Positions 1 to 55,400 of a stretch of 64,000 nt of DNA are shown here, piece after piece. The position numbers and the translations under genes are program-made. This DNA is from a virus, in the IMG/VR virus record IMGVR_UViG_3300045973_000434, positions 1 through 64,000 of that record; one strand, written 5' to 3'. The notes under the pieces were generated by a model. The model did no database searches. It was not told the DNA's origin and saw only the letters and a list, made by a program, of their open reading frames with translations. Each line of letters begins with the position of its first letter. Position 1 is the first letter of the stretch.

Positions 1-215
1 TGTTGTAATGCTTCGGCCTTACGAACTTCAATCTCACAAAGTTGAATCACTTCTGCACTTGCACCCTGTTTTTTCGCTGCCCAGCGAGCTGCATATTCTG
101 CAGCTTTACTGGCAACATCCATCATAATTGAAGGACTAGCAAACCCAATGTTAAGGTTTGTTTTAATGAGGTCAAAAGTTTCTGCGTTTTGAAATTTCCT
201 TACGCTATTTTCCAT
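1..215 (-). CDS. hypothetical protein, N-terminal 71 codons only (gene runs off left edge)
   Basis: ATG at 215..213 opens a minus-strand frame (MENSVRKFQNAETFDLIK...) with no stop down to position 1. It is missing from the ORF track because it is truncated. Confidence 0.45.
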   Translation of the reverse strand, partial: MENSVRKFQNAETFDLIKTNLNIGFASPSIMMDVASKAAEYAARWAAKKQGASAEVIQLCEIEVRKAEALQ

Positions 216-276
216 TTTTTTGATTTAAATGATTATTTGATTTTAGAACTACAATGCAACGATTCTTTGTACAGAA

Positions 277-633
277 TTATTTCCTTACGATTGTACATTC
301 TTCAACAAGTTTCATGATCACCTCTGCTTCAAGAGCGCTTTCATCAAACAATTGAGTTTCATCATTCATGATATAGATCTCACCTGCATAATCTAAGACT
401 TGTTGTCTCATATAAAACAATGCAAGTTGTCTCTTTGGGTCCTTGTTTGTATTAACTCTTACCAAATGTTTGATAGAGTTAATAATATCCGGGTTAATAA
501 TAGCAGATTTCTTGACAAATATTCTCTGAAGTACTTCAGAAACATTATTCTCAGTTACGAGAAGTTGTGCTTTAGGTGCTACTATCACCTTTTTATCCGG
601 CGTACTGTGTACGTTTATGATTGTCTTTTCCAT
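277..633 (-). CDS. hypothetical protein (118 aa)
   Basis: ATG-initiated ORF in the co-oriented leftward array. Its start overlaps the stop of the upstream gene by 1 nt (TAATG). Confidence 0.55.
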   Translation of the reverse strand: MEKTIINVHSTPDKKVIVAPKAQLLVTENNVSEVLQRIFVKKSAIINPDIINSIKHLVRVNTNKDPKRQLALFYMRQQVLDYAGEIYIMNDETQLFDESALEAEVIMKLVEECTIVRK

Positions 634-1139
634 TATTTATTTTTTTTGATTGGTTGTTTGTGTATTTCGAGATTTTGATTCACGAGTATTCTTAAGAAAC
701 GCAAGCCTTTGCTTGTTTTATTAAGTGTCTTAGCATACTGATATTCCTTTTTTGATTTGTCGGACATCTGTGCATATTGACGATTAGTAATACGATATGT
801 AACAGCTTGTTTTTGCTTATATACATATATATAATTACTTGGTGTTAGCTTATGAAACTGAAAGCTTTTAACATGATTTACTACATATTGTTGTAGTAGT
901 AAAACTCTATACCTTTTTGCATAACCTCTGTACAATAGAACTTCTGCATATTGTGGTTTTTTAGTAACCCAATCAGGTATTATACTTATAATTGTACCGA
1001 TTCCATCAGGTGTAACAACAGTCACACCCTCTCTTAAATCGATTACAGCCACAGTATGTATAAAGCCATCATATTCAATTCTGTTTGCTGGTACAACAGG
1101 TCTTATCCTGTTGATTATAGTTAAGATAAAATTTCCCAT
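633..1139 (-). CDS. hypothetical protein (168 aa)
   Basis: ATG ORF, tightly packed with its neighbours. Confidence 0.6.
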   Translation of the reverse strand: MGNFILTIINRIRPVVPANRIEYDGFIHTVAVIDLREGVTVVTPDGIGTIISIIPDWVTKKPQYAEVLLYRGYAKRYRVLLLQQYVVNHVKSFQFHKLTPSNYIYVYKQKQAVTYRITNRQYAQMSDKSKKEYQYAKTLNKTSKGLRFLRILVNQNLEIHKQPIKKNK

Positions 1140-1258
1140 CTCTTCATTCTTTTTAATTGTTTGATGGTATAACCTTTTCTTTCCAACGTATTACTGATGA
1201 AATCACCTTCAATATCAGTATTAGTGTTGTCCTTCCAATAAATTCTGAATTTATTCAT
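1121..1258 (-). CDS. small hypothetical protein (45 aa), below ORF-track cutoff
   Basis: Hand translation gives MNKFRIYWKDNTNTDIEGDFISNTLERKGYTIKQLKRMKRWEILS. The ATG overlaps the stop of the 1258..1590 gene (TAATG). The ORF fills an otherwise empty gap. Confidence 0.3.
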   Translation of the reverse strand: MNKFRIYWKDNTNTDIEGDFISNTLERKGYTIKQLKRMKRWEILS

Positions 1259-1590
1259 TAGTCTTTTGGTATATTAATGTATAATTCTTTGTTAATCATT
1301 GTCATCCTTGTACCATTACGTACAAGCCCTTTAGAGCGATCTATGCATTCTAATGGTATACGAATATCACATTGACCAGCACATATCATTCTACAAATGA
1401 TAGTGGGTTTAGGTGATTCACCAGTAGTGTATACAAGATTTATAGCGAGTATCATTACTTGTTGGCCACGAAATCTATCCATTTCTGGCATAAATCTCAC
1501 ACCGTTATTCTTTTTAAAGATATCCCGAAAGTTACCTTTTAAGTAAACCTTATCCCCAGGTTCTACTTTCATTTTAGTTGTTTTTCCCAT
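1258..1590 (-). CDS. hypothetical protein (110 aa)
   Basis: ATG ORF in the leftward array. Confidence 0.55.
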   Translation of the reverse strand: MGKTTKMKVEPGDKVYLKGNFRDIFKKNNGVRFMPEMDRFRGQQVMILAINLVYTTGESPKPTIICRMICAGQCDIRIPLECIDRSKGLVRNGTRMTMINKELYINIPKD

Positions 1591-1697
1591 ATATATATTT
1601 AGTTAATAAAATGAAAAAAGGGCCTAATCATGTTTAGCATCGATTTTAACATCGACTACATTTTCGAGCCCTTTACACCTCATGGCACAGTGTGTTT

Positions 1698-1892
1698 TTA
1701 TTTCTTTGGTTTGTTAAACAAGCCTATTATCTGAAATGCTAATAGTGAGATAATAGTAATTATTACAACTACTACTATCATACCTACTATTATTTCAGTT
1801 AATAATTTATTGTCTTCAACAAATCTACATATAAATATTATAACTAGTAGATATAGTATTAACAAACCCATGCCTTTAAAAATGTCTTTCAT
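1698..1892 (-). CDS. small membrane protein (64 aa, two hydrophobic helices)
   Basis: The sequence GLLILYLLVIIFICRF ... IIVGMIVVVVIITIISLLAFQIIGLF is almost entirely hydrophobic. Confidence 0.55.
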   Translation of the reverse strand: MKDIFKGMGLLILYLLVIIFICRFVEDNKLLTEIIVGMIVVVVIITIISLLAFQIIGLFNKPKK

Positions 1893-2006
1893 ATCATTAA
1901 CTTTATGAGAAAACTAAACTCATTTCTTCTAAATCGTGCCATTTAGTTTTTCAGTTGTTTGATAGTTTGTAGTCAGCATATCCCTATGCACTACCCATTT
2001 CAGGTA

Positions 2007-2231
2007 TCATATTTTTCCGTGATATCGATCATCATCAGTACGTATTAATAAGCGTAAGCTCTCTATCATATGTTCATGATGTTCTTTAGTCACACCTTCT
2101 TCAAGTGGACAGTATTTAGGAAAGTTCTCATCATTCTTAGGAATACATGATTTTATATGATTTGGTTCATAAAAACATATATTTTTAAAATTATGAGCAC
2201 ATTCACTTGGTGTTCTTATTAATTTACTCAT
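2007..2231 (-). CDS. hypothetical Cys/His-containing protein (74 aa)
   Basis: ATG ORF with scattered Cys residues and an HHEH cluster. Confidence 0.5.
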   Translation of the reverse strand: MSKLIRTPSECAHNFKNICFYEPNHIKSCIPKNDENFPKYCPLEEGVTKEHHEHMIESLRLLIRTDDDRYHGKI

Positions 2232-2317
2232 TAGCTAATTATTATATATATAACAACTACTATGAGTATAATCACTAATACAATAGTGTATTCAATAAGT
2301 TTTTGAAGTCTTGTCAT
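2231..2317 (-). CDS. 28-aa single-pass membrane peptide (below ORF-track cutoff)
   Basis: Hand translation gives MTRLQKLIEYTIVLVIILIVVVIYIIIS. Its TAA overlaps the ATG of the downstream gene by 1 nt (TAATG). Confidence 0.4.
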   Translation of the reverse strand: MTRLQKLIEYTIVLVIILIVVVIYIIIS

Positions 2318-2390
2318 TTAATATCCTCCAGATATTAGATTAATAATAAAGAGGACAAATAGTAACAAGTACTAGATGTCCTCATAAATC

Positions 2391-2594
2391 TTACAAGTTA
2401 ATACGAATCCACGGTGGATGCCAGAGTCCAGTAACTATCAGGATAATCCAGATAATCACTAATACTACAACAACAGCATTGAATATTCTACGAACATCAG
2501 CTGTTTTAGCATCGACCCATAGATAGCTGTTGATTAACCACAACAATATTGCAGTTGCAGCTAATACACACAAAACTAGAACTAAAGGGGTCAT
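2391..2594 (-). CDS. small membrane protein (67 aa, two TM helices)
   Basis: Hydrophobic stretches LVLVLCVLAATAILLWLI and VVVVLVIIWIILIVTGLW. Confidence 0.55.
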   Translation of the reverse strand: MTPLVLVLCVLAATAILLWLINSYLWVDAKTADVRRIFNAVVVVLVIIWIILIVTGLWHPPWIRINL

Positions 2595-2634
2595 ACTATT
2601 TTGATTAGTGTTACGGCACTAGTACCGCCAAATG

Positions 2635-2997
2635 TTAATTACCATTTGGAACTGTACCCTTTGGTGGTACATTCCGCCTTTTTGTACAATCTACGTAACA
2701 ATCATCCCCTTTTGAGTTGAGATAATACATACGAAAACGATTATACTGTTCTTTTTTTGCTGGTGTAGAAAGAACCCATGTTTCCCATTCTTTACCTGGA
2801 TGTAATACAACGGGTAAAGGTCGTTGTTTGTTGATCTGTTTCTTAATTTTAGCATCATATCCTATACTTCTGAAACTTACGTCCCTGATAATAATAGGAG
2901 ATTTGCTATCATTTCTCACATTTAAAAATAAATGTGGCGTCTGCTTTGGATCTTCTGTGAAGACAGCAGAGTGAACACGGAATTTGATTTTCTTCAT
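2635..2997 (-). CDS. hypothetical protein (120 aa from first ATG)
   Basis: The track ORF 2635..3048 starts at a TTG. The first ATG (2997) removes the overlap with the upstream gene. A promoter-motif copy lies about 110 nt upstream of that ATG. Confidence 0.55.
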   Translation of the reverse strand: MKKIKFRVHSAVFTEDPKQTPHLFLNVRNDSKSPIIIRDVSFRSIGYDAKIKKQINKQRPLPVVLHPGKEWETWVLSTPAKKEQYNRFRMYYLNSKGDDCYVDCTKRRNVPPKGTVPNGN

Positions 2998-3014
2998 TTT
3001 TTGATTGTATTTAG

Positions 3015-3224
3015 TTAAATGGTGATTTCTTTTATATCTGTGCCACAAATACCTGTATCATAAGGATCTAATTGTAGTTCCTTACCATTTATAACTATTC
3101 TATCAAATAAACGTACTCCGTTTTTGAGCGTTACATTAACTACATGAAAACCTAAACCTGATTCAGGTATATTTTCAAGTTGTTTGACAAATTTGTCTGG
3201 TAATAATACTGTAAATCTTTCCAT
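3015..3224 (-). CDS. hypothetical protein (69 aa)
   Basis: ATG ORF preceded by an intergenic region. Confidence 0.5.
   Translation of the reverse strand: MERFTVLLPDKFVKQLENIPESGLGFHVVNVTLKNGVRLFDRIVINGKELQLDPYDTGICGTDIKEITI
3108..3135 (-). promoter_or_regulatory. minus-strand copy of the TGTAAC-N16-CGTTTA promoter-like motif
   Basis: The plus strand reads TAAACG-N16-GTTACA, an exact reverse complement of the motif with exact 16-nt spacing. It lies inside the 69-aa ORF, upstream of 2635..2997. Confidence 0.45.
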
Positions 3225-3290
3225 GAGGCTATGTGATTAAAGTTGCTAAAAACAAAAAAAATGTTCTACGCTATTTACATTTAATAAAAT

Positions 3291-3326
3291 GAATATCCCA
3301 GGCTTCGTTAAGTTTCTGGGATATTC
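3291..3326 (-). terminator. intrinsic terminator after the 287-aa gene
   Basis: 11-bp perfect inverted repeat GAATATCCCAG / CTGGGATATTC with a 14-nt loop. On the minus strand it is followed by AUUUUAUU, and it lies 27 nt past the stop codon. Confidence 0.6.
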
Positions 3327-3352
3327 TATCTCAACTGGAAATCAAGATATTT

Positions 3353-4216
3353 TTATTCAATGTTTGTGTTTTCTTCTTCAATCTCTGCAGCTGTTTTGAG
3401 GATTACTCCCTGGTCATCAACAAGATCTCCATCTTCATTGATTTCACCAACAGGTGCATTAATTTCCGGATCTTTCACTGTTACTTCTTTGCTGTTACCT
3501 TTTTCAGTTACTGTTGTTACAGTTTCTTTAAGGTATGGCTTGACGTGTTTCTCATACTGACGTGCACAAACTTCAAGAAGTTTATCCAGATCATCGTCAT
3601 CAGCGAAGAATTCATAATAACCAATGATAACAGCTTTTGGTGAATATTTACCGGTCTTTGGGTCAAGTGTTGTAGCTGTTAATGGTACAAGCTTACCCTG
3701 TTTGTTCATACTGTGTGGTTGATACAACGGTGTGTTGAAACCAACTTTTAAACCCCATACAGTATCCATGAGTTTAATCATTGGCCTTTTCTGACTGTCA
3801 AAACCGGCTTTTTTGTAACCACCCTGTTCGTTGATTACTTTACCGTCTTTGTCTGTCATATCACCCATTTCAATACCTTCTCTTATATAATTATAAAGAT
3901 CAGGCTGTGAATTGAGGAATATAACACTTGTTTTGGCTTTCTTTGGGCCTTTGAATGATCTCCTGCCTTCTGCATTTACTGTTATTGAACCAAGTGGTTT
4001 AAATGCGGCATGAATAAAATCCTGTACACCAATTTTAGCTGCTATTGCAGCTGCATTTGGGCTTGATTTGAGCTGATAGACTATTTCAGTCTTTGTTGCA
4101 TCATCAGCTTTCTTTTGTCTTCTTCCAACTACGAACATTTCATGTTCTTTACTTGGTTGACGCATGCCGAATAATTCAGCATTCATCTGTACTAAAATTT
4201 CTTTGTTTGTAGGCAT
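3353..4216 (-). CDS. hypothetical protein (287 aa) with acidic C-terminal tail; possible ssDNA-binding protein
   Basis: The track ORF begins at TTG 4297; the first ATG is at 4216 (MPTNKEILVQ...). It is the longest gene of the left arm. The acidic tail (DGDLVDDQG...AEIEEENTNIE) resembles phage SSB tails. The function is a guess. Confidence 0.6.
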   Translation of the reverse strand: MPTNKEILVQMNAELFGMRQPSKEHEMFVVGRRQKKADDATKTEIVYQLKSSPNAAAIAAKIGVQDFIHAAFKPLGSITVNAEGRRSFKGPKKAKTSVIFLNSQPDLYNYIREGIEMGDMTDKDGKVINEQGGYKKAGFDSQKRPMIKLMDTVWGLKVGFNTPLYQPHSMNKQGKLVPLTATTLDPKTGKYSPKAVIIGYYEFFADDDDLDKLLEVCARQYEKHVKPYLKETVTTVTEKGNSKEVTVKDPEINAPVGEINEDGDLVDDQGVILKTAAEIEEENTNIE

Positions 4217-5052
4217 TTCTTTTGATTTTTTAGTGTGTGTATAAAAATTATTTAGTCTTTGTGCAAGTGTGCATGTTAAAAGGGGATTCTCATACAATGT
4301 GATAGTTGAATTAATTGCGCTAAAGAAATTATGAATTTAAACCTATCGTTATGTGAAAGAACGCGTATTTAAATCCCCTTTATGACTGATTTACTGGATG
4401 TCTTCGCTAACCATGTGCTTCATGTGCTATTGACTATTAAACGGCTTCTAACCATCAAGGCTGACCACGTTCCAGTAAACCATTTGTAGACTATGCTGGT
4501 GTTGATCCAGCATTACGGTGAGTTTTAGGGCTTAATTGCTTTTGCTCACATAAACTAGCCTCCTACGTGCTAATAGTCTGATACCAATGTTCTTTATAAG
4601 GAGTCTTTACACTGGACTCAAGCTGTATATAACGTTCAGCGTCGTATTGTTCTTATCTCCTTTTATATATTGTTTATGCAATACATAAAATTAATGCTAC
4701 ATAACGTGTATAAATACACAGCACTATACCTGTTTATGCAACTTATGTTCATTGCTTTATCAGGATTATTGCGTTATAGCGTGCAATCAGCTGTTGAATA
4801 TGTTCCGCCTACCAACTGGCGAGAAGATCCATGTCTGCATTTAGGATCTAATAATTTGATTTAGAGATATCAATGTAGTCATCCATTGATGGTAAGAACA
4901 AGTTGTGGGTAGAGACAGTTACGAGCTGCCATACAGCCTATCTCACGACAGTCTGCGTATTTACATAGCTTATACGATCCCCCTGCCATTAAAATGGGTT
5001 TTCTTCATGTCTGTGCTTAGTAAGATTTGACAATTAAAATTCCCAATGTGGT
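4217..5052. other. 836-nt ORF-free gap with raised GC, hairpins and short direct repeats
   Basis: There is no minus-strand ORF of 60 aa or more. AAAGGGGATT (4280-4289) pairs with AATCCCCTTT (4371-4380). ATGCTGG/CCAGCAT forms a hairpin near 4492-4512. TGTTTATGCAA occurs at 4671 and 4731, exactly 60 bp apart. Confidence 0.5.
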
Positions 5053-5265
5053 TTATTTGTTATATTTTGTAAAGAGCTCGTCTTCACAATCAATGCAAAA
5101 GCCTGTCTTTGTATTGACATTTTTCAATGTCTTACACAGTTTGCATCTTAATACTGTTGCTATTACTATTCTTGGATGTTCTATCCTTGCATTTATTAGT
5201 GCAATGTGTGCATCTGACATATGTGATGGATGACCAATGATAGCTATTTTTGTTTTAATACCCAT
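5053..5265 (-). CDS. small zinc-ribbon-like protein (70 aa)
   Basis: CKLC ... CIDC cysteine pairs. Confidence 0.5.
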   Translation of the reverse strand: MGIKTKIAIIGHPSHMSDAHIALINARIEHPRIVIATVLRCKLCKTLKNVNTKTGFCIDCEDELFTKYNK

Positions 5266-5266
5266 G

Positions 5267-5665
5267 TTATGGTCTACCTAATAGTGTAACAACAATATTA
5301 CAAGAATCACCACATTGTTCTTTCTTATAGGTGTGTGGTACACCATGTGCGCATGCTCTACAGATAGATAATTTATCATTGAATACATCACATGCAACTG
5401 AATGCGTATGTTTGTATTCTTTATCATCTATGAGCTTAACTCTTTCTTTATGTATATTAACATCAATATCAACATCTTGTGGTTTGGCGTTGAAATTAAC
5501 TGCTCTCATCACTAAGAATAGAAATGTTAACATACATGTTGAGCCAATTATTATCCAAATAGCATTGAGTGGCTCAAATACAACTAATGCTGCTACCATA
5601 AAAATGATAGTCCATAACATACTGAGTATGAAACAGACTTTTTCAAAGATGTTCAAGTTTTTCAT
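5267..5665 (-). CDS. membrane protein with Cys/His-rich C-terminal domain (132 aa)
   Basis: Two N-terminal hydrophobic helices, then a C...C..C..H..H...C...C pattern. Confidence 0.6.
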   Translation of the reverse strand: MKNLNIFEKVCFILSMLWTIIFMVAALVVFEPLNAIWIIIGSTCMLTFLFLVMRAVNFNAKPQDVDIDVNIHKERVKLIDDKEYKHTHSVACDVFNDKLSICRACAHGVPHTYKKEQCGDSCNIVVTLLGRP

Positions 5666-5704
5666 TGTACTACTATTTTTGATTTAGTTAATTTAAATGT
5701 CAAA

Positions 5705-5770
5705 TAAATATCTCACATCAGTTATTATACATACTATGTTGTGATGTACTGCCTATATGTGAGATATTTA
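5705..5770 (-). terminator. long stem-loop, probable terminator or regulatory hairpin
   Basis: 14-bp perfect inverted repeat (TAAATATCTCACAT / ATGTGAGATATTTA) enclosing 38 nt. It is followed on the minus strand by AUUUAUUU and lies between the genes ending at 5782 and starting at 5665. Confidence 0.55.
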
Positions 5771-5781
5771 ATGCTAGTTGT

Positions 5782-6060
5782 TTAGGGTTTTACCGGTTTT
5801 CTTTGTCTACCATGTATAAACATCCAATTGTTATTGGTGTCATTGAATGATGAACATTTCATAACATATGAACAGTTATATGATTTGTACATATACTTAT
5901 TCTTTGTTAATTCATGTTTATCAGCCATATCATGGCGTGTTCTGTAGTCCTTGTTATACAAGGTTGCTTTAGTTGAGGCACATGACATCAAGCCTGTAAT
6001 TAATACAAATGCAGTTAATATCAATATGAATATTAAACCTGCTGGTGATCTCTTTCTCAT
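5782..6060 (-). CDS. predicted lipoprotein (92 aa)
   Basis: N-terminus MRKRSPAGLIFILILTAFVLITGLMS|C has a basic n-region, a hydrophobic core and a lipobox-like LMSC. Confidence 0.6.
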   Translation of the reverse strand: MRKRSPAGLIFILILTAFVLITGLMSCASTKATLYNKDYRTRHDMADKHELTKNKYMYKSYNCSYVMKCSSFNDTNNNWMFIHGRQRKPVKP

Positions 6061-6062
6061 AG

Positions 6063-6437
6063 TTATACTTTATTACTTATCCTTACTTGTGTGTAATATC
6101 TACATCTAAATGAATTATATAAATGTAGTCTGCACATTTGATTAGTGCAAGAGTAACATAATGATTGTTCATCCATCTTTCTAACAGGCATTTCTTCTAT
6201 ATATGATATTGGTTCTGATTTAATACCATTATATTTAGTGATTGCTAAATGTAGTTCATCACTTGTATAGACTGTCTTATTATGTTTCTGAACAAAGTAT
6301 GATGTGTGAGTAGTCACTGAAAATCGTTTAACAGTTATTGTATGTTTAACAAATAATCGTTTATGATCTTCAGAAGAACTAGCAAGTAACACTGTTGTAT
6401 CACCTGCTAGTTGTTGTGCTAAGATTATATGTGCCAT
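6063..6437 (-). CDS. hypothetical protein (124 aa)
   Basis: ATG ORF; its start overlaps the stop of the upstream gene by 1 nt. Confidence 0.55.
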   Translation of the reverse strand: MAHIILAQQLAGDTTVLLASSSEDHKRLFVKHTITVKRFSVTTHTSYFVQKHNKTVYTSDELHLAITKYNGIKSEPISYIEEMPVRKMDEQSLCYSCTNQMCRLHLYNSFRCRYYTQVRISNKV

Positions 6438-6676
6438 TATTGTCTGGACATATCACATTTCTTCATTAAACCAGTTGCTAACCATATTGTCTTCTCTGGT
6501 TCAGTTGCATTGGTGAATGATATTACTTCAACCTTGATTAGTTTACAAGGCATAATAACATTTAATTGTCCTTTTACAACATTTGCTTTTTGACTGAGCA
6601 TATCACATGCTTTAATAAAACTATTCTGTTCACCACTACTGATAGTAATGAACAATGATCCTTTAATACTTTTCAT
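6437..6676 (-). CDS. hypothetical protein (79 aa)
   Basis: ATG ORF preceded by the conserved leader AATTCAACTGGAA. Confidence 0.5.
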   Translation of the reverse strand: MKSIKGSLFITISSGEQNSFIKACDMLSQKANVVKGQLNVIMPCKLIKVEVISFTNATEPEKTIWLATGLMKKCDMSRQ

Positions 6677-6693
6677 TTTCCAGTTGAATTAGT

Positions 6694-7113
6694 TTATATT
6701 ATTTTAAATTGATATTTTCCTTCTATTATTTTTGTTTCAATGTTAGGATTATCTTTTATCCAATTCCATGCAGCTATTCTAGCATCTTCTTTACTATTTA
6801 ATTGATATGCTTTAGCTTTTAATCTAGCTTCGATTAATATACGTGTTGCAAGTTTCTTTGATGGTGGTTTTTTACTTACCCATTCAATAGAATATTTATT
6901 ATGTCCTTCACCTGTTATTCTTTGAACATCAATTATATTCCATTCTTTTAGAATAATACTGATTTCAGGTATGTAAAACATTTTAAATCTTTTAGCAAGT
7001 GTACTAAAACCAACATTTATCTTTGTGTTTAGATAAGTGGCTTTGTGTATAAAGATCATAAATTGTAACAATCTCCATACATTTTCTTGTTCTTTGGTTT
7101 TGATTGTTTTCAT
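6694..7113 (-). CDS. hypothetical protein (139 aa)
   Basis: ATG ORF with an ATGA overlap to the upstream small ORF. Confidence 0.55.
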   Translation of the reverse strand: MKTIKTKEQENVWRLLQFMIFIHKATYLNTKINVGFSTLAKRFKMFYIPEISIILKEWNIIDVQRITGEGHNKYSIEWVSKKPPSKKLATRILIEARLKAKAYQLNSKEDARIAAWNWIKDNPNIETKIIEGKYQFKII

Positions 7114-7268
7114 TTGGTTAATTCATATTGATGTATTTGTTTACTTCTTCTGATATCACCAATGATTGTAACAGTTATGCAATAAGCTAATGCTACTATC
7201 AAGAATATAATTATAAATAACCATAGTTTATCATCCATGCTTTGCTTGGGTGTCATTCTTTGTTTCAT
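7110..7268 (-). CDS. 52-aa single-pass membrane protein (below ORF-track cutoff)
   Basis: Hand translation gives MKQRMTPKQSMDDKLWLFIIIFLIVALAYCITVTIIGDIRRSKQIHQYELTK. Its TGA overlaps the ATG of 6694..7113 (ATGA). Confidence 0.45.
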   Translation of the reverse strand: MKQRMTPKQSMDDKLWLFIIIFLIVALAYCITVTIIGDIRRSKQIHQYELTK

Positions 7269-7349
7269 TATATGTGTGTATTTGATTAGTTTAATAACAA
7301 AAGCTATTTGGTAGTATGTAAGTGTTATAAAGGTTATAGCAAAAGAGGC

Positions 7350-7586
7350 TTATTCAGCCCCTATTAACCAATCAAATCCATCAGGTGATCTCCATGTTAT
7401 TGGTCTCTTGACATCAGCAGCTATTGTGCCTACTGCAAGCTTCTCATCTGAGTGACTAAAGATACATCTCTTTACTTTCAATTTGCCTACCATCTCATTG
7501 ATTGATAAGGTTATGACATATTTACTAGTTGGTTTCTTTGAACCATGTTTCGTAGCCAATTGGCATTTTTTAACGATTAATTTCAT
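7350..7586 (-). CDS. hypothetical protein (78 aa), first gene of the leftward arm
   Basis: ATG ORF preceded by the same AATTCAACTGGAA leader as the gene at 6676. Confidence 0.5.
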   Translation of the reverse strand: MKLIVKKCQLATKHGSKKPTSKYVITLSINEMVGKLKVKRCIFSHSDEKLAVGTIAADVKRPITWRSPDGFDWLIGAE

Positions 7587-7611
7587 TTCCAGTTGAATTT
7601 AAGTTTTGGGT

Positions 7612-7706
7612 CATTGACGGAGTACCCTTCCCGCGTAAGCGGGTCGCGGGTGGTTTGATTGGGGTGGTACCCGTTCTCTACAATATAAAAAAAATAAAGG
7701 CCGGGG
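7612..7706. other. GC-rich structured island at the divergence point of the two arms
   Basis: By eye it is well over 50% GC in a background of roughly one-third GC. CCCGC-GTAA-GCGGG forms a hairpin (7630-7643). A mutually exclusive pairing CCCGCG/CGCGGG (7630-35/7645-50) is also possible. GTACCC is directly repeated. Confidence 0.5.
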
Positions 7707-7734
7707 TGTAACATTTAAGTACCTAGTACGTATA
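7707..7734 (+). promoter_or_regulatory. promoter-like motif TGTAAC-N16-CGTATA (copy a)
   Basis: Exact hexamers with exact 16-nt spacer, 35 nt upstream of the ATG at 7770. Confidence 0.6.
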
Positions 7735-7769
7735 CGGGTCTTTTAGTATGAACGTAATAAGTAAATAGA

Positions 7770-8084
7770 ATGTATGCAATTAAGATAGTAAGTGGTTCTA
7801 CTACATATTTATATGAGGCAGAAGAACTAAGTTATAAGGCAGTAATGTGCGAGGGATCTGAAGAGTTTTACTCAGACATGGATAATGACGGTAATGAGTT
7901 TATAATTGGAGATGTTCCAGATAATAAATTTGAGTACTGTAAGATGTATTTAAATGATTCATTTGAACGTAATGGGTATAAGGTGTTTTATATAATGCCA
8001 GAAGCATGGGTTTATATAATGCAGAATGGTAGAACAATTGAACCTTTACAAGTTCATAAGTTTAAGGAGAGTGTTGAAGTTTAA
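7770..8084 (+). CDS. hypothetical acidic protein (104 aa)
   Basis: ATG ORF, first gene of the rightward arm. Confidence 0.55.
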   Translation: MYAIKIVSGSTTYLYEAEELSYKAVMCEGSEEFYSDMDNDGNEFIIGDVPDNKFEYCKMYLNDSFERNGYKVFYIMPEAWVYIMQNGRTIEPLQVHKFKESVEV

Positions 8085-8115
8085 GCCACAACACCTGTAT
8101 ATATTTGTACATACA

Positions 8116-8143
8116 TGTAACTATTGTATATGGTACACGTTTA
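8116..8143 (+). promoter_or_regulatory. promoter-like motif TGTAAC-N16-CGTTTA (copy b)
   Basis: Exact spacing. It lies inside the TTG-initiated N-terminal extension of track ORF 8105..8596, which argues that the extension is not translated. Confidence 0.55.
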
Positions 8144-8191
8144 AATAGGTGTAGGACTATAGTGTCCTATATGTATAATACATTAATTATA

Positions 8192-8596
8192 ATGACAAAC
8201 AAAGGAATTTTAACACTAGAACAAGAGAAGTATCTATCAGGGAAACTTGATGAAACAGTTAAACTGAAAGGTATTCCTGAATTTCTAGATGGTTTTATGT
8301 TTAAAGCAGTCATATCATTTCTTGATGATAATTATCTTGAGAAACTAGATGTGGAATTAAAAGCAAAACTAGGTAAACTAGTTGATGCTGTAATTGCTGA
8401 AGATGTACCTACAGCAGAAGAACTTGCTGCTGATATCGTCGCTTCCTTGGTAAGGATACCAGGACTTGAAGAAGACGAGAACGCACTTATGTTTAAGGGG
8501 GTCATCGAATTGTTAGTAGGGGTTATCCTGAAAGCTATCGCTGATAAGAAGGCTGCTAATGCAGCTGCCACAAAGACAGCTAAGGTAGTTAAGTAA
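8192..8596 (+). CDS. hypothetical helical protein (134 aa from first ATG)
   Basis: First ATG gives MTNKGILTLEQEKYL... The gene sits between its own promoter copy and a strong terminator, so it is a likely monocistronic, highly expressed unit. Confidence 0.6.
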   Translation: MTNKGILTLEQEKYLSGKLDETVKLKGIPEFLDGFMFKAVISFLDDNYLEKLDVELKAKLGKLVDAVIAEDVPTAEELAADIVASLVRIPGLEEDENALMFKGVIELLVGVILKAIADKKAANAAATKTAKVVK

Positions 8597-8618
8597 AGAA
8601 TATATCAAATACAAATAG

Positions 8619-8645
8619 AACCCACCCCACAAGGTGGGTTTTTTA
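8619..8645 (+). terminator. intrinsic terminator
   Basis: AACCCACC-ccacaa-GGTGGGTT (8-bp stem) followed by TTTT. Confidence 0.75.
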
Positions 8646-8655
8646 TTGTGTAAAT

Positions 8656-8683
8656 TGTAACATTTATATGATATATACGTATA
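8656..8683 (+). promoter_or_regulatory. promoter-like motif TGTAAC-N16-CGTATA (copy c)
   Basis: Exact match, 23 nt upstream of the ATG at 8707. Confidence 0.6.
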
Positions 8684-8706
8684 AAACAATATAAAACAAT
8701 AAGATT

Positions 8707-8928
8707 ATGCAGTTTATACAATTACATATGCAGGACTACTTCTATGCTAGGTTTGCATTTGACGAGCAAGACTTGTTATATTTACCAAAGGAAGTGTTAG
8801 CTGAAATTGAGGAAAAGAGTGAAGTGAACGAGTATGCCACATATGAGTGTGCAATACATATAAGGTGTGATGATGAAGTGGAATATAAAAAGCAATGTAT
8901 ATATTGGTTCAGTAAAATATTATGGTAA
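8707..8928 (+). CDS. hypothetical protein (73 aa)
   Basis: ATG ORF after promoter copy c. Confidence 0.5.
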   Translation: MQFIQLHMQDYFYARFAFDEQDLLYLPKEVLAEIEEKSEVNEYATYECAIHIRCDDEVEYKKQCIYWFSKILW

Positions 8929-9320
8929 TGGAAATGAAATTTTATAAACAAGAGGATGTAGACAAGCGTATACAATCTTTATTAGATAGTGGTGTATTAG
9001 TATACAATGCTAAGGAAGTATATAATACTAGGGACTGGTATGATGGTATATTACCAAAGATGTTGATACCAGAGTATACACCTGAAGATGTAACTATTAG
9101 GGCTGGTACTGGTATGGTGTTTATAGTACCTGTTAAACGTGATCATACATATGGTACATTTCAAACATCTATGACATATACAACTGGTGCTGCATATAGT
9201 TTTGGTGCATCGTATCCAAGGTATATAACAGCTTCTATGTCAACTGTATATCAGAGTAAAGATGACAAAGTTATTGTTTGGTTTAAAAATATGTTTAATA
9301 AGTTAAAAGATAAATTGTAA
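8922..9320 (+). CDS. hypothetical protein (132 aa)
   Basis: ATG ORF overlapping the upstream gene by 7 nt. Confidence 0.55.
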   Translation: MVMEMKFYKQEDVDKRIQSLLDSGVLVYNAKEVYNTRDWYDGILPKMLIPEYTPEDVTIRAGTGMVFIVPVKRDHTYGTFQTSMTYTTGAAYSFGASYPRYITASMSTVYQSKDDKVIVWFKNMFNKLKDKL

Positions 9321-9512: not shown

Positions 9513-9995
9513 ATGAAGAAAATAGACGATCTAATTAATGAATGCCGTATGTTTATACCACTTGATGGTCGAGTGTTAATACATGCGTTGAAGATCAGGC
9601 AGATAAAACAAGAGGACTACTCTTTTGATGTAGCTGACACAAAGGCTAACGAAGGTAAAGATCCAAGTAAACATAGGGTTGACTTAAAGAAGATTCAGCC
9701 TAAGATTAATGCTAAGTACCAAAAGGCTGTAGTGTTACAGGTACCTTTTGATGAATCACGGTTTAAAGTAGGTGATACAATCTTATATCCAATGGGGGCA
9801 TCTCAGTTGTTTGATGTAGTTAAAGGTGTATCAGTTTTACGTAAGTATGACGTAGTAGCTGTGGTAATTAATAATGAAATAAATGAATCTGAACAAGAAA
9901 TGGCAGAGGGATCTACTACGACTAGAGGCAAAGTGTGGATCAATGATAGTGCAAATTTGGCAGGGTTTACTAGTACTACTCCATCTAAGGCGTAG
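9513..9995 (+). CDS. possible GroES/gp31-like co-chaperonin (160 aa)
   Basis: IPLDGRVLIHALK near the N-terminus and KAVVLQVP...FKVGDTILYP...KYDVVAVV resemble GroES landmarks (PLxDRVlv ... vkvGDxVly ... DilAvi), with a long mobile-loop-like insert. This is motif-level evidence only. Confidence 0.35.
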   Translation: MKKIDDLINECRMFIPLDGRVLIHALKIRQIKQEDYSFDVADTKANEGKDPSKHRVDLKKIQPKINAKYQKAVVLQVPFDESRFKVGDTILYPMGASQLFDVVKGVSVLRKYDVVAVVINNEINESEQEMAEGSTTTRGKVWINDSANLAGFTSTTPSKA

Positions 9996-10065
9996 GCGCA
10001 CATGGCATTGGCCATGGCAACATTCCTTCGAACCAAGTGGTTGGCGTTCTAATGAAGTCTTCCTA

Positions 10066-10239
10066 ATGTTATACGAGTACTTATCGAAGGGTGGTTGTGC
10101 AGACTTTACGGAAACAATAGTATTAGCAAATGATCCAGATGAACCATGGTGTGTAGATCCTATAAGTCATTTAACCTTCTATAATGGTGATGAAGTTAGG
10201 GAACCGATGATAATCGGCAATGCTGATTTACTATGCTAA
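10066..10239 (+). CDS. hypothetical protein (57 aa from internal ATG)
   Basis: The track ORF 9883..10239 overlaps the preceding gene for 113 nt with an implausible Arg/Trp-rich N-terminus. The ATG at 10066 gives MLYEYLSKGGCADF... Confidence 0.35.
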   Translation: MLYEYLSKGGCADFTETIVLANDPDEPWCVDPISHLTFYNGDEVREPMIIGNADLLC

Positions 10240-10257
10240 AATATTTATTGAAAATAA

Positions 10258-10285
10258 TGAAACCTTTTTTAAAACATTTCGTTTA
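10258..10285 (+). promoter_or_regulatory. degenerate promoter-like motif TGAAAC-N16-CGTTTA (copy d)
   Basis: One mismatch in the upstream hexamer with exact 16-nt spacing. The spacer (CCTTTTTTAAAACATTT) resembles that of copy e (CCTTTTTGAAATCTGTT). Confidence 0.45.
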
Positions 10286-10676
10286 AGTGGTATGACTCCC
10301 AAATAGGGAGGCAGAAAGCTAGAGTAGTTTAGGGCCTACCACCGAGAAAATTGGTACAGGGATTGAGAGTAGGATAAGTTTTAAGATAGCTGGAGAGCGC
10401 TTAAATAAGAGGGACTAAGAAATATGACCCGACTAAATTGCTTAAACTGGATGCTCATTAAACTGAGTTTTATCAAGGAATAACCTTTTCTTGGGGAACT
10501 CATCTATTCAGATAACTTAAAGAATACAGTTAAAGAGGTCTAAGTATTTAATAAAGTGAAGTACAAAAAAAATATGTGAAAAAAATAATATAGGTAAGCA
10601 TCCTCCTTAGGGAGAGTTTTTTATAAGTTGATTTCTATTATTTACGGGGGAGGGGCGCAAGCCTCTCTCTTTTTTT
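10286..10676 (+). ncRNA. candidate non-coding RNA (~390 nt), class unknown
   Basis: No ORF of 60 aa or more on either strand. The unit is bracketed by promoter copy d and an intrinsic terminator. GC is raised. Hairpins are CTCCC-aaata-GGGAG (10296-10310) and CTCC-ttag-GGAG (~10603-10614). Confidence 0.4.
10647..10676 (+). terminator. intrinsic terminator
   Basis: GAGGGGC-GCAA-GCCTCTC stem (one G.U pair, GNRA loop) followed by a T7 run. Confidence 0.7.
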
Positions 10677-10703
10677 GTAACCTTTTTGAAATCTGTTCGT
10701 ATA
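10676..10703 (+). promoter_or_regulatory. promoter-like motif TGTAAC-N16-CGTATA (copy e)
   Basis: Exact match starting in the terminator T-run, 30 nt upstream of the ATG at 10734. Confidence 0.6.
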
Positions 10704-10733
10704 ATAGGTTAGTAATAATTAAAAACAAATATT

Positions 10734-10937
10734 ATGTGTAATTATTTTTGTGTATGCAATAACTGTCCTTTTGTAAAGAAGTGCAATGTCGTCGAAGATC
10801 GGCCACAGACAAAGAATGTAAGACGTGAAGAATCAGGTAATTGGGTTGTTGAACTTCGTGGCTTCAGGGAAGTCAAAGAAGTAAAAGAAGAAAAGAAATC
10901 CAATAATACTCGTATAATCGATATTTATTTATTCTAA
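10734..10937 (+). CDS. small Cys-rich protein (67 aa)
   Basis: N-terminus is MCNYFCVCNNCPFVKKC; the C-terminus is charged. Confidence 0.5.
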   Translation: MCNYFCVCNNCPFVKKCNVVEDRPQTKNVRREESGNWVVELRGFREVKEVKEEKKSNNTRIIDIYLF

Positions 10938-12465: not shown

Positions 12466-12784
12466 GAGCATACTCTTCTCTGAGTATACAAAAATACTAA
12501 ATGGGGTACTTCAGCTTTCCAATAGGGAGGCTGAGGTTTTCTCATTTTTACTACAGAAAGATTCTGTAGGGGATTCCACAAACATAAATACTAAAGAGAT
12601 TAGGGCTGAGATTATAAAAACATATAATATCAGTGAAGCTAATTTAAGTAGGTATTTAGGTGTGATAAAGAATAAAGGTCTAATCATTAGAGGGCAAACC
12701 GGTAAATGGGTAATTAATGATTTAGTTAGACCTGTTATTAAAGATAACGTATTTGAATTAAAGTTTGTATTGGAGATAGAGTAA
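12437..12784 (+). CDS. possible winged-helix DNA-binding protein (115 aa)
   Basis: LSNREAEVFSFLLQ ... ISEANLSRYLGVIKNKGLIIRG resembles a MarR/wHTH recognition helix plus wing. Confidence 0.35.
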   Translation: MNLLKKKVSKSILFSEYTKILNGVLQLSNREAEVFSFLLQKDSVGDSTNINTKEIRAEIIKTYNISEANLSRYLGVIKNKGLIIRGQTGKWVINDLVRPVIKDNVFELKFVLEIE

Positions 12785-52391: not shown

Positions 52392-52412
52392 TTAGTTTAT
52401 TTAACATACTTT

Positions 52413-55400
52413 ATGTTTGAACAAAACATGGATGGTGTTACTCCAGTTAGGAGATTGACATCACAAGACATAAGTAGCCCTTTAGGTGCTACAGAAACAG
52501 TAAGTCCAGAAACTGGATTAACAGGGGATAGCAAATCAGCAAGAAGACTAAGTAGTAAAGAACTTAGTGAAGGATTCATGAGTGATACTGGTGGCATATC
52601 CCCTATTATTTCTAATACCCCTGGTGGTATTAAGAGTACTGAAAAAATTATTGGTGAAGGTGAATATCATCCTGAATTAGGAACTGTTTATAATCAACAG
52701 TTATTACACGAACGACAGACTGCAACAGGTCAGTTTGCAAATGCTTTAATACAAGCTGGTGCTCAAATAGTTGGGCAAAGTATACAAGGTGCAGCTTATA
52801 TAGCTGATATTGACTCTGGTGCTAGATTATCAAATGATGCTGAGGCAGATTTTGGTAATGCGGTTGCTGATTTTGGTTCCAAGATAATTCAAGGAGCTGA
52901 AGAGTTAGCACCTATATATGTTGACCCATATAAGGAAGGTAAATTCGATCCAGGATCATGGTCTTGGTGGATGAAAAATCTACCATCTGCTGCATCTAGT
53001 GTTGCACTTATGATACCTGCTTTGGGTGCTACATCATTAGTGGAGATGTTACCTGGGGTATCTAAATTACTTGCTGGTTTAAGTCAAGAAGGAGTTGTTG
53101 CTGCAAGAGGCTTTACACAAGCTATATTCTCTAGAAAAGCAGAGAGTATGATGGAAGCAGAAGGTGTTTATAAAGAAAATTATCAGAGAGGTAGACAATC
53201 TGGTTTATCAGAAATTGATGCAAGAAAAGCAGCATCATTAGCTGCATCAAACACATATAATAAAAACTGGGCATTATTAGTTCAAGATATACCTCAGTAT
53301 ATGTTGTTAAATAAATTAGGGGCTTTAGCTAAAGGTGGTAAAGCAGGTGAAAAGATAGCTGCCGAAGAAATGCATCCTAAGATTGCAAACTGGATGGGTA
53401 AAGGACAACTTGAAACTACATTAGGTAAAGTTGGTGCAATTGCTACAGATATGGCTGGTGAAGCTGGTGAAGAGATTTATCAGTACTTACTTAATGAACA
53501 GTCTAATACAATGGCTGCACATCAAGCTGATCCTGATAAGAATAAAACAAGTAGTCTATTACAAACATTAAAAGATCATTATGATGACGGTGATCTTTGG
53601 ACCTCTGGTTTTTGGGGAGCTGCTGGTGCTGGTATAATGCAAGCTGGGTTTGCTGGAATGAATCATAAAGCTTTACAAAAAGCTGCTAATGAGCAGTTAG
53701 ATACTGTTACTAAATTTAGCACAGGTTTAAATCAGGCTAATAAAGAATATGCAGCTGCTCTTGCAGAAGGTGATCCTATTAAAGCCGAACAAGCTTTTCC
53801 ATCTCTTATATTCAATACAACATTAAGAAGTCATTTAAACGGTTCTCTTAAGTATACAAGAGAGATGCTTAATGAACTATCTAAAGGAACTTCTCCAGAA
53901 CTATATGCTAAATGGGGTATTGATCCAGAAACACAAGGTAGATTAAAAGACGATCCTGATTTCTTTAAAAAGATTAAAGATGGTATGGATAGGGTTGTAG
54001 AACTCTACGACAGGTATGGTAAAGAGAATAGAAGTAATAAAAATATTAAGGATAAAGATAAAGAGCCTAATGCTCAGATAATGGCTAATACTCAATTCTT
54101 AATGGAGAACACTGAAAAGAGTATTCCTACTATTGAGAAGAGAAGAGACGAGGCTTGGGGTAAAATAGAGAAGGTTGAAGAGTTATCTGCTCCTAAGCAA
54201 GCTATCTTAGGTCTTGAAGCTAGGAACCGTGCATCACAGAAGTTGTTAGATCATTTTGATAAGACTTTGAAAGAGCGTGGTGATAAGATGGGTGAAGTTG
54301 AAAAGAAAGAATTAGAACTTGCTATTGAAGAAACAAAACTTGATATAGTAAAGACTAATAGTAATGACGATCCTACTAAACCTGGTATTAAACAATATCA
54401 AGCTGAATTAAGAAAGATACATAAAGATGATTTTGAACAAGCTGATAAAGATAATACACCATTACCTGAAGATCAAATAGATGCTTTTAGAAAAGAAGTT
54501 GGTAGGTTAAAAGCTGCTAATGAATCTATGAAACAGTTAACCGCACGTATGAAAAAACTACGTGAAGGTAAATCTGTATTAGATCTTCAGAAAGAAGAAG
54601 TAATGGATCAGTTGGGTATCAAACCTGACGAACGGGATGAAGACGCAATACAACCTGATGATACTGTACAGTTCAAAGATGAAACTGGTGCAGACCAATA
54701 TGGTAAAGTGGTTGGTGTAGAAGAAGCTTTAGATGAAAATGATACATCAGATCCTAAATACGTAGTTCAACCAGTTGATCCTAAAACACATGAACCAGTT
54801 GGGGAACCGGTGGTTAAAGGTGCTTTAGATTTATTCTTAGATGAGAAAGTAGATGATAGGATTAATGAAGAGATTGCTCCTGATGGTTTAACTGATGTAG
54901 AACAAGTTCAGTTAGATGGCATAACAGAAGAAGAGTCTTTAATAGAGTCTGGTCAAAAAGTAATGCAAGGAGTATCTAAACTATCTTATTCTGATTTTGA
55001 TTCTAAAACCGGTATATATAATAATAGAAACTCTGAGTTCTCTAAAGTTATAAGTGATCCTAATACTAGTTTCACTGGTTCAAAAGCTTATTTCTTTTTA
55101 AGCGATGCTGTAAAGTTACAACCATTCGTTGACAAATATGCAACAGCAAAACAGAAACCAATCTTTAAAAAGTTCTTAGATGGTAAGAAGTTAACTGATC
55201 CTGAAATTGATATCTTAGTTGAGGCAATATCTGGTGATAAGTTTAATGACTTAGTTGATATGTTACCAATATCTGTAAGAGCTACAATAGCTGGTAAAAC
55301 ATTTGAAGAAGGTTTATATTTACATAGTTCTGGTTTTAAATACATTGCTATACCTAAATCAATTCGTAGAGGTAAGAAAGCGGCCATTGATGCATATCGT

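Follow-up and report, generated by a model that had tools for sequence, protein, structure and literature searches.

A structured non-coding RNA conserved by compensatory mutation in seven crAss-like phages

Positions 10258-10677 of the DNA analyzed here (IMG/VR virus record IMGVR_UViG_3300045973_000434, positions 1 to 64,000; hereafter referred to as the window, with a length of 64,000 nucleotides, nt) very probably hold a real gene for a structured non-coding RNA (ncRNA). The conserved structured core of this RNA (hereafter referred to as type A) lies at 10293..10500 on the + strand, is about 210 nt long and comprises eight helices (P1, the long-range P2, P3/P3a, P4/P4a, P5 and P6), which were found in all seven versions known. 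Its fold is conserved by compensatory mutation in seven crAss-like phages, is specific to the + strand and is non-coding. A sequence-only reading of the window had proposed a promoter-to-terminator unit encoding a phage ncRNA of about 390 nt. The unit and its nature are supported by covariation and by the lack of an open frame in the homologues, but the RNA proper is limited to the 5′ ~210 nt.

BLAST searches with the window DNA against deposited phages found nothing, and 65 IMG/VR loci fetched via the terminase contained no homologue of the RNA, having only a promoter-like motif in common with this region. The 160-amino-acid (aa) protein encoded upstream of the RNA retrieved no close relatives when used as a single-sequence query in IMG/VR. 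Protein-cluster look-ups with this protein yielded 42 relatives, the contigs of which were fetched and then profile-scanned for the RNA. Six further versions of type A were identified, all on metagenomic crAss-like contigs, in each case preceded by the same two genes and, immediately 5′, by the promoter-like motif:

L068, 3762-3967: type A homologue
L069, 4077-4285: type A homologue
L080 (= L082), 1150-1361: type A homologue
L081, 3526-3736: type A homologue
L086, 2155-2412: type A homologue
L087, 2248-2523: type A homologue

DNA identity to the window was 71-76% for L068 and L069, with L080, L081, L086 and L087 more divergent. Identity with the relatives was confined to 10250-10515 of the window, the 3′ part of the unit having no counterpart. 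A covariance model of the RNA (R1, see below), run over 1.02 Mb of related loci and the rest of the window, detected no additional copies. Exact-pattern scans for the RNA gave no match in the JGI metagenome collection or in GTDB bacterial and archaeal genomes, and matched just two contigs in IMG/VR, both of which were already in the set.

The fold is strongly supported by covariation, which the sequence-only reading had named as a check. From a standard MAFFT alignment of the initial five sequences, RNAalifold predicted 40 pairs, 21 of which had compensatory changes. Six 5′-domain helices (34 pairs) were curated on a structure-free MAFFT alignment (hereafter referred to as A5). On A5, 98.2% of cells were paired, 18 of the 34 pairs changed on both sides and none of 500 shuffles reached any of the main measures, whereas controls in which the 3′ partners were slid by 1-3 columns had 27-37% of cells paired and no more than four compensatory pairs. 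Model R1, built from an A5-based alignment, scored 177 bits for the window and 73-187 bits for the six relatives. With filters off, it later detected L086 (84 bits) and L087 (73 bits), which scored 125 and 107 bits, respectively, when aligned over the whole model. These two sequences were not involved in deriving the structure; they fit the fold and add new pair types, such as CUGUC/GGCAG in P1. In the alignment of all seven sequences, 98.7% of cells were paired and 20/34 pairs were compensatory (at most five in the slid controls), values reached by no shuffle; this alignment was fitted to the model, and A5 therefore provides a test with less bias. The + strand is the one on which G-U pairs are conserved, and the only one matched by R1. 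Given the U-G pair conserved in P2 (7/7 sequences) and the other G-U pairs, the structure therefore exists only on the + strand.

The gap containing the RNA is flanked by a 57-aa open reading frame (ORF) ending at 10239 with its own stop codon, and a 67-aa ORF starting at 10734. ORFs of at least 60 aa are absent from 10240-10733, in which there are just chance ORFs of 28-40 aa, and the gap is also left empty by the gene calls on an 85.6-kb Logan contig (SRR35489367) carrying an identical sequence for the 160-aa upstream protein. A hidden ORF under a recoded genetic code was rejected, as reassignment of TAG, TGA or TAA opens nothing across the core. Stop codons interrupt each reading frame in all seven homologues, ruling out a decayed gene. 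The absence of an ORF and the presence of stops in all frames had thus been read correctly from the window alone, and an intact ORF in relatives, which that reading had named as grounds for rejecting its proposal, was sought in the six relatives and found in none. The segment could also be viewed more broadly as a decayed gene, a functionless spacer or a DNA-level site for packaging or protein binding. This view is contradicted by the evidence, and we find it scarcely credible: the absence of an ORF is the only point in its favor, whereas compensatory double substitutions keep almost all the cells of the seven-sequence alignment paired, the opposite strand would have A-C mismatches in place of the conserved G-U pairs, no homologue has an open frame, and the unpaired junctions are near-invariant even though the neighboring protein has diverged to 60-77% identity.

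The positions of the structural parts in the window are as follows:

10296..10310 (+): P1 hairpin, CTCCC / GGGAG; 4/5 pairs change on both sides, with all cells paired
10323..10332 (+): 5′ strand of P2, AGTAGTTTAG, pairing with 10433-10442
10335..10373 (+): P3 and P3a (P3, 10335-10340 with 10367-10373; P3a, 10341-10343 with 10353-10355)
10380..10405 (+): P4 and P4a (P4, 10380-10385 with 10400-10405; P4a, 10389-10391 with 10396-10398)
10433..10442 (+): 3′ strand of P2, CTAAATTGCT, with a conserved GACCCGA directly 5′
10444..10453 (+): conserved single-stranded junction, AAACTGGATG, nearly invariant in the 7/7 sequences
10454..10467 (+): P5 hairpin, CTCA / TGAG; pair types vary at all four positions
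10474..10493 (+): P6 hairpin, CAAGGAA / TTTCTTG
10494..10515 (+): conserved 3′ tail, GGGAAC(T), then (T/A)CAG(A/T)TAA
10516..10645 (+): A/T-rich, non-conserved 3′ spacer, with a second hairpin at 10602-10616 and no counterpart in relatives

P1 has a loop, AAATA (AAAUA in the RNA), that is invariant in all seven sequences. It is the first of two hairpins that the sequence-only reading had regarded as related, both built on CTCC(C)...GGGAG; P1 is real and covaries, whereas the second hairpin is not conserved, and the two do not constitute a pair. P2 is a long-range helix of 10 base pairs (bp), three of which have changed on both sides. Four of the six pairs of P3 are compensatory, P3a is invariant and the P3/P3a region contains a conserved junction, GGTACAG. 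P4/P4a, with a GGAG loop, has compensatory changes at 9/10 pairs. In P6, CAA/TTG is replaced by CGA/TCG in L080 and L081, a compensatory change. P5 and P6 were also predicted in each homologue folded alone, the stems of L086 being read by eye.

The unpaired segments of the RNA are almost invariant: the AAAUA loop, GAAAG, GGUACAG, GACCCGA, AAACUGGA and GGGGAAC. In the tail, GGGGAA is invariant in the seven sequences and GGGAACT reaches position 10500, but no pairing partner for the tail was found. A pseudoknot between GACCCGA and the GGGG tail was considered and rejected, the U-to-C change in L080 and L081 being explained by the nested P6 instead. Neither a helix closing the 3′ domain (CUGGA/UUCAG) nor a helix joining the 5′ and 3′ ends is kept across members, as judged by eye, and pairing of the tail with the 3′ strand of P5, as a switch, is present in the window only. 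The large insertions in L086 and L087 are confined to the P3a loop, P4 and the P4/P2 junction (P3a loop in L086, P4 in L087); peripheral elements of functional RNAs usually vary by such insertions. At the position of the 3′ spacer, the relatives have another sequence or a small ORF. G+C content is 40.6% in the 5′ 212 nt, versus 34.2% in the whole window and 38% in the left flank, and falls to 24% at 10505-10645; the enrichment in G+C with respect to the flanks noted from the sequence alone therefore applies to the 5′ core, but not to the 3′ part of the unit.

The core is preceded by a copy of a motif, TGTAAC-N16-CGTATAA, with copies at 7707, 8116, 8656, 10258, 10676, 11516 and 34386, all on the + strand, intergenic and ahead of genes. 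With two mismatches or fewer allowed, the motif family occurs 12 times, versus an expectation of 2.6; no shuffle out of 100 contained as many. Three features delimit the unit:

10258..10286 (+): promoter-like motif copy d, TGAAAC-N16-CGTTTAA, with two mismatches, the weakest of the copies
10646..10677 (+): intrinsic terminator, with a hairpin at 10646-10671 (11-bp stem, GCAA loop) and a T-run
10676..10704 (+): promoter-like motif copy e, a perfect match, forming the unit boundary and serving the gene at 10734

Copy d is separated from the next ORF by 448 nt, whereas the other six copies sit 23-50 nt from a start codon, and the T-run of the terminator runs into the copy at 10676. The start at copy d and the strong terminator meeting the next copy, both pointed out in the sequence-only reading, are thus confirmed, together with the over-representation of the motif family. 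We infer that the motif acts as a promoter, with transcription starting at about 10287-10293. We take it to resemble extracytoplasmic function (ECF) sigma-factor promoters, with their “AAC” −35 and “CGT” −10 elements (e.g. TGAAAC-N16-CGTATA for Bacillus subtilis sigma-W), rather than the housekeeping type of Bacteroidota. No Pfam match to a sigma factor that would explain an ECF-like motif was obtained for the 10 neighboring ORFs.

Type A matches no known RNA family. With Rfam 15 (4227 models), the whole window gave no match at the gathering threshold; at E values of up to 10, only noise matches of 21 bits or less were obtained on 9900-10900, none covering the core, and nothing was found at the element in the six homologous loci. 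ARAGORN identified no tRNA or transfer-messenger RNA (tmRNA) in the window, and the Rfam tmRNA models, including the permuted ones, had no match on 9900-10900; both tools find the tmRNA of the crAss-like Cellulophaga phage phi14:2, used as a positive control. The lack of recognizable tRNA or tmRNA features had been remarked upon in the sequence-only reading, which had also advised the Rfam scan. HEARO (omega) RNA was rejected, because there was no match to the Rfam HEARO model and no IscB-, TnpB- or HNH-type gene beside any type A copy. A phi29-type packaging RNA (pRNA) was also rejected, as there was no Rfam match and the loops of the seven members had no mutual complementarity, although this was judged by eye and is weak evidence. 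On these comparisons, type A is a new RNA family, with no relative among known families; this novelty refers to the family.

In relatives lacking type A, this motif is followed at the corresponding place by different leaders, which are free of ORFs and richer in G+C. Several of these leaders form a second structured RNA family of about 240 nt in the same syntenic slot (hereafter referred to as type B), for which RNAalifold predicted 35 pairs, 22 of them compensatory. It has members in at least seven loci and differs in architecture from type A; searches for it in Rfam and in GTDB genomes were negative. The type B copies, and the small homologous Cys/His-rich ORFs located 3′ of some of them, are listed here, followed by the nuclease gene of L074, which has a leader of another kind:

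L072, 3812-4050: type B; Cys/His-rich ORF at 4066-4488
L076, 3820-4056: type B; Cys/His-rich ORF at 4067-4450
L077, 3792-4030: type B; Cys/His-rich ORF at 4026-4487
L079, 1878-2110: type B; Cys/His-rich ORF at 2104-2616
L061, 1540-1785: type B
L070, 1955-2069: type B, partial
L010, 283-336: type B, partial
L088 and L089: type B
L074, 978-1640: VRR-NUC protein (29 bits), after a third kind of leader

The ORF of L079 fell just under the cutoff for Pfam HNH (E = 7.8e-4, 20.0 versus 21.4 bits). Two features recur in types A and B: a hairpin whose loop reads AAAUA and, at the 3′ end, a hairpin trailed by an invariant GGGG(U)AAC (10494-10500 in the window). No pairing partner for this last sequence was found. 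We do not claim homology between them: the shared strings (CGACUA, AGUAG..GGGC, the AAAUA loop and the GGGG tail) differ in order and pairing, and R1 misses type B. In L005, the terminase of which is 76% identical, the motif (TGTAACC...CGTATAC) is followed at 6190-6430 by ~240 nt of a different, G+C-richer sequence (folding z-score of −0.44) and by a 47-aa Cys/His-rich ORF.

The order of elements is type B, HNH, ORF X in L072 and type A, ORF X in L068; in this sense, a single slot is filled by either one RNA or the other. It may be that the site harbors cassettes of a structured RNA and a nuclease gene. One possibility is that type A is a ribozyme or the RNA of a mobile element (self-processing, group-I-like or belonging to a nuclease cassette), the window carrying a nuclease-less version. 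The size and conserved junctions of the RNA would fit a catalytic RNA, the corresponding site in relatives carries different structured leaders, with an HNH-like ORF (type B; L072, L076, L077 and L079) or a VRR-NUC gene (L074) after them, and L068 and L072 look like alternative cassettes. However, none of the seven type A units adjoins a nuclease, and no Rfam intron, ribozyme or HEARO match was obtained even at E values of up to 10. The element is bounded by the motif and terminator rather than by exons and interrupts no ORF, and a group I intron was rejected on these grounds and for want of an Intron_gpI match. In addition, R1 finds nothing in loci of type B or of a further type, C, and kinship between A and B is undemonstrated. 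We consider this explanation quite improbable. Slightly less so, though still unlikely, is a slot for interchangeable, unrelated and highly structured RNAs, with type A representing a new functional class of phage RNA other than a conventional regulator; type A could then be a ribozyme, a cofactor or activator of a nuclease, or a decoy disabling a host defense or taking over a host machine.

In all seven units, the motif is followed by the RNA, a G+C-rich hairpin with a T-run, and the next copy of the motif. In the window, L080 and L081, the stretch from the RNA to the terminator is free of coding sequence, whereas a 59-aa ORF (family X) occupies this position in L068 and L086, and an unrelated ORF of 43-62 aa (family Y) does so in L069 and L087. 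The RNA is, thus, the constant of the unit, and the ORF is optional cargo. A riboswitch or cis leader of a single gene class was rejected on the basis of this distribution, with 3/7 units free of ORFs and the others carrying two unrelated ORF families, and of the distance of ~140 nt between the core and the terminator. Type A has the general features of a stand-alone ncRNA gene: compensatory pairs, strand specificity, no conserved ORF, and a promoter-like motif and terminator of its own.

The best overall explanation, to which we give about even credence, is that of a self-contained ncRNA gene, the RNA of which acts in a stand-alone manner through its fold. Transcription would proceed rightward from the ECF-sigma-like motif, which lies 7-10 nt 5′ of P1, and would end at the intrinsic terminator (10646-10671). 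In the conserved fold, P1 forms the 5′-terminal hairpin, and P2 closes a junction bearing the arms P3/P3a and P4/P4a, followed by P5, P6 and the GGGGAAC tail. The folded RNA would probably bind a protein, without controlling one particular downstream gene; possible roles include those of a ribonucleoprotein component or a decoy, made in a small-gene region presumed to be early. That type A is trans-acting and protein-binding is put forward more tentatively, at somewhat less than even credence. A stand-alone RNA is the simplest reading because three of the phages have no ORF, the optional ORFs are unrelated and the downstream genes have a separate promoter.

Several points weigh against this explanation. 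The transcript and its ends are predicted from sequence signals, and its stability is presumed. No partner protein was identified, the neighboring proteins (57-160 aa) having no Pfam or PHROG matches. The known set consists of seven sequences, from about five lineages, in one narrow clade, limiting the depth of conservation. Folding energy is unremarkable (z-scores of −1.5 for the complete unit, −1.65 for the core and +0.9 for the minus strand), and the case therefore rests on comparative data rather than thermodynamics. Finally, four of the seven units carry an ORF after the RNA, and the location after a promoter, before a terminator and upstream of a co-directional array of more than 50 kb also fits a cis-acting antitermination element.

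The last two points favor a cis-acting leader, in which the RNA would modify the polymerase (processive antitermination, as for HK022 put or lambda PR′-tR′) or sense a ligand or protein, thereby deciding on read-through of the terminator into the small genes and the long array of structural genes. The order expected of put and nut elements, with the RNA between the promoter-like motif and the first terminator, was found in 7/7 phages; the genes downstream, from 10.7 kb to beyond 64 kb, are all co-directional, with further terminator-like sites (e.g. at 12508); and P1, with its covarying 5-bp stem and invariant pentaloop, resembles a boxB-type contact with a protein or the polymerase. Conversely, each terminator is followed by a better-matching copy of the promoter, so the downstream genes do not need read-through, although it could still occur. 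The ORFs after the RNA are missing from three of the units and, where present, come from two unrelated families. No expression platform based on alternative pairing is apparent, because the terminator lies ~140 nt away, across non-conserved sequence, and the sole alternative pairing in the window, between the tail and the 3′ strand of P5, is not conserved. Known antitermination RNAs are also much smaller. We regard a cis-acting leader as rather doubtful, and retain a stand-alone RNA as the preferred explanation.

The wider context points to the window being part of the genome of an uncultured crAss-like phage using the standard code. The large ORFs at 13.7-20.9 kb match the PHROG families of the large terminase, portal and major head protein; the terminase shares no more than 57% identity with its counterparts in uncultured crAss-like phages, and its match list consists mostly of uncultured, Bacteroides, Flavobacterium and Cellulophaga crAss-like phages; and the standard code keeps the long ORFs intact. 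It is from these PHROG matches, terminase matches and intact ORFs that the assignment follows. A GroES-like identity for the 160-aa upstream protein was considered and dropped, as it found no backing in PDB, Pfam or PHROG.

Gene orientation and GC skew both switch at about 6-8 kb, 2-3 kb from the RNA unit. This proximity, together with the A/T-rich stretch (24% G+C) 3′ of the RNA, would suit an RNA that primes or activates replication, like ColE1 RNA II or the primary origin promoters of T7, with unwinding at 10540-10600. However, conservation does not extend to the A/T-rich stretch, in place of which four relatives have ORFs, the skew switches where gene orientation changes and need not mark an origin, and no replication genes adjoin the unit; a role of this kind seems highly unlikely.

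Three further observations were made in these sequences. Positions 52392-64000 (+) of the window are occupied by one uninterrupted frame, over 3869 codons long and without a PHROG match, that runs off the end of the window; at residue 3093 it has a DFDID motif, which is reported to be catalytic in the virion RNA polymerase of crAss-like phages and is found here within a much larger protein. L072, from a related crAss-like phage, encodes a 112-aa protein at 950-1288 (−) with a precomputed Pfam match to the C-terminal domain of the RNA polymerase alpha subunit. L068 has an Rfam tRNA match (41 bits) at 276-396 (−) that spans 121 nt, exceeding a normal tRNA, and that may be a tRNA with an insertion or intron.

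Few known phages rival the crAss-like group in abundance and, to our knowledge, almost nothing is known about its ncRNAs. Full-text searches of the literature on ncRNAs of Crassvirales yielded nothing relevant beyond a report on phi14:2, and the pair of unexplained, abundant early RNAs of this phage is the only precedent we found. The present study provides a covariation-supported fold of 210 nt, with eight helices and invariant junctions, a covariance model, and seven sequences for synthesis and testing. RNAs of such size and complexity have usually proved to be ribozymes, riboswitches or the cores of ribonucleoproteins. That relatives have a second, different structured RNA in this position, in some cases adjoining nuclease genes, suggests that the small genes upstream of the packaging module in this phage group include an RNA-based function that had escaped notice.

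In phi14:2, early, abundant and stable long ncRNAs have been reported for the g004-g006 intergenic regions, with a function stated to be unknown (bioRxiv 10.1101/2020.03.07.982082). Like type A, they are found in a crAss-like phage, are ORF-free and several hundred nt long, and lie among small genes with which they are co-directional; the small-gene region of phi14:2 has been shown to be early, whereas that of type A is only presumed to be so. R1, run with filters off on positions 1-9000 of phi14:2, found nothing, indicating no sequence or structure homology, and synteny of the window with the region of these RNAs was sought and not found. At 4031-4500 of phi14:2 (NC_021806; L083), ARAGORN identified a tmRNA with the tag GSSVQKLAMVA (Rfam tmRNA score of 46 bits, against a cutoff of 47). 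This tmRNA, in the unannotated gap upstream of g006, is presumably one of the two unexplained RNA regions. The two systems would differ in this respect: one phi14:2 region is a tmRNA and its transcription has been shown, whereas the RNA of the window is not a tmRNA and its transcription is deduced from signals.

The pRNA of phi29 is a stand-alone structured phage RNA of 120-200 nt, made from an early promoter; it is a ribonucleoprotein component, and its sequence diverges rapidly while its fold is kept. Type A is likewise phage-encoded, structured and apparently stand-alone, with a fold maintained despite sequence divergence, but no ring-forming pair of complementary loops was seen by eye, and the phage of the window has a conventional large terminase and portal. 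A role for type A in packaging is pure speculation.

HK022 put, lambda nut/boxB and lambda PR′-tR′, the “6S” RNA region of which is an ORF-free promoter-to-terminator unit, resemble type A in their location 3′ of a promoter, 5′ of a terminator and ahead of a long co-directional array, and boxB is similar in size to P1 (5-bp stem and invariant 5-nt loop). Type A differs from put and nut in being three times larger, in its multi-helix junction and in the separate promoter after its terminator, and no N- or Q-like protein was identified for its unit. The RNAs ROOL, GOLLD and HEARO/omega, the functions of which were unknown at discovery, share with type A a complex covarying fold and a link to phages or mobile elements, but type A is much smaller than ROOL and GOLLD and has no Rfam match to any of the three. 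HEARO also resembles the sister leaders at this site, in that nuclease genes adjoin both.

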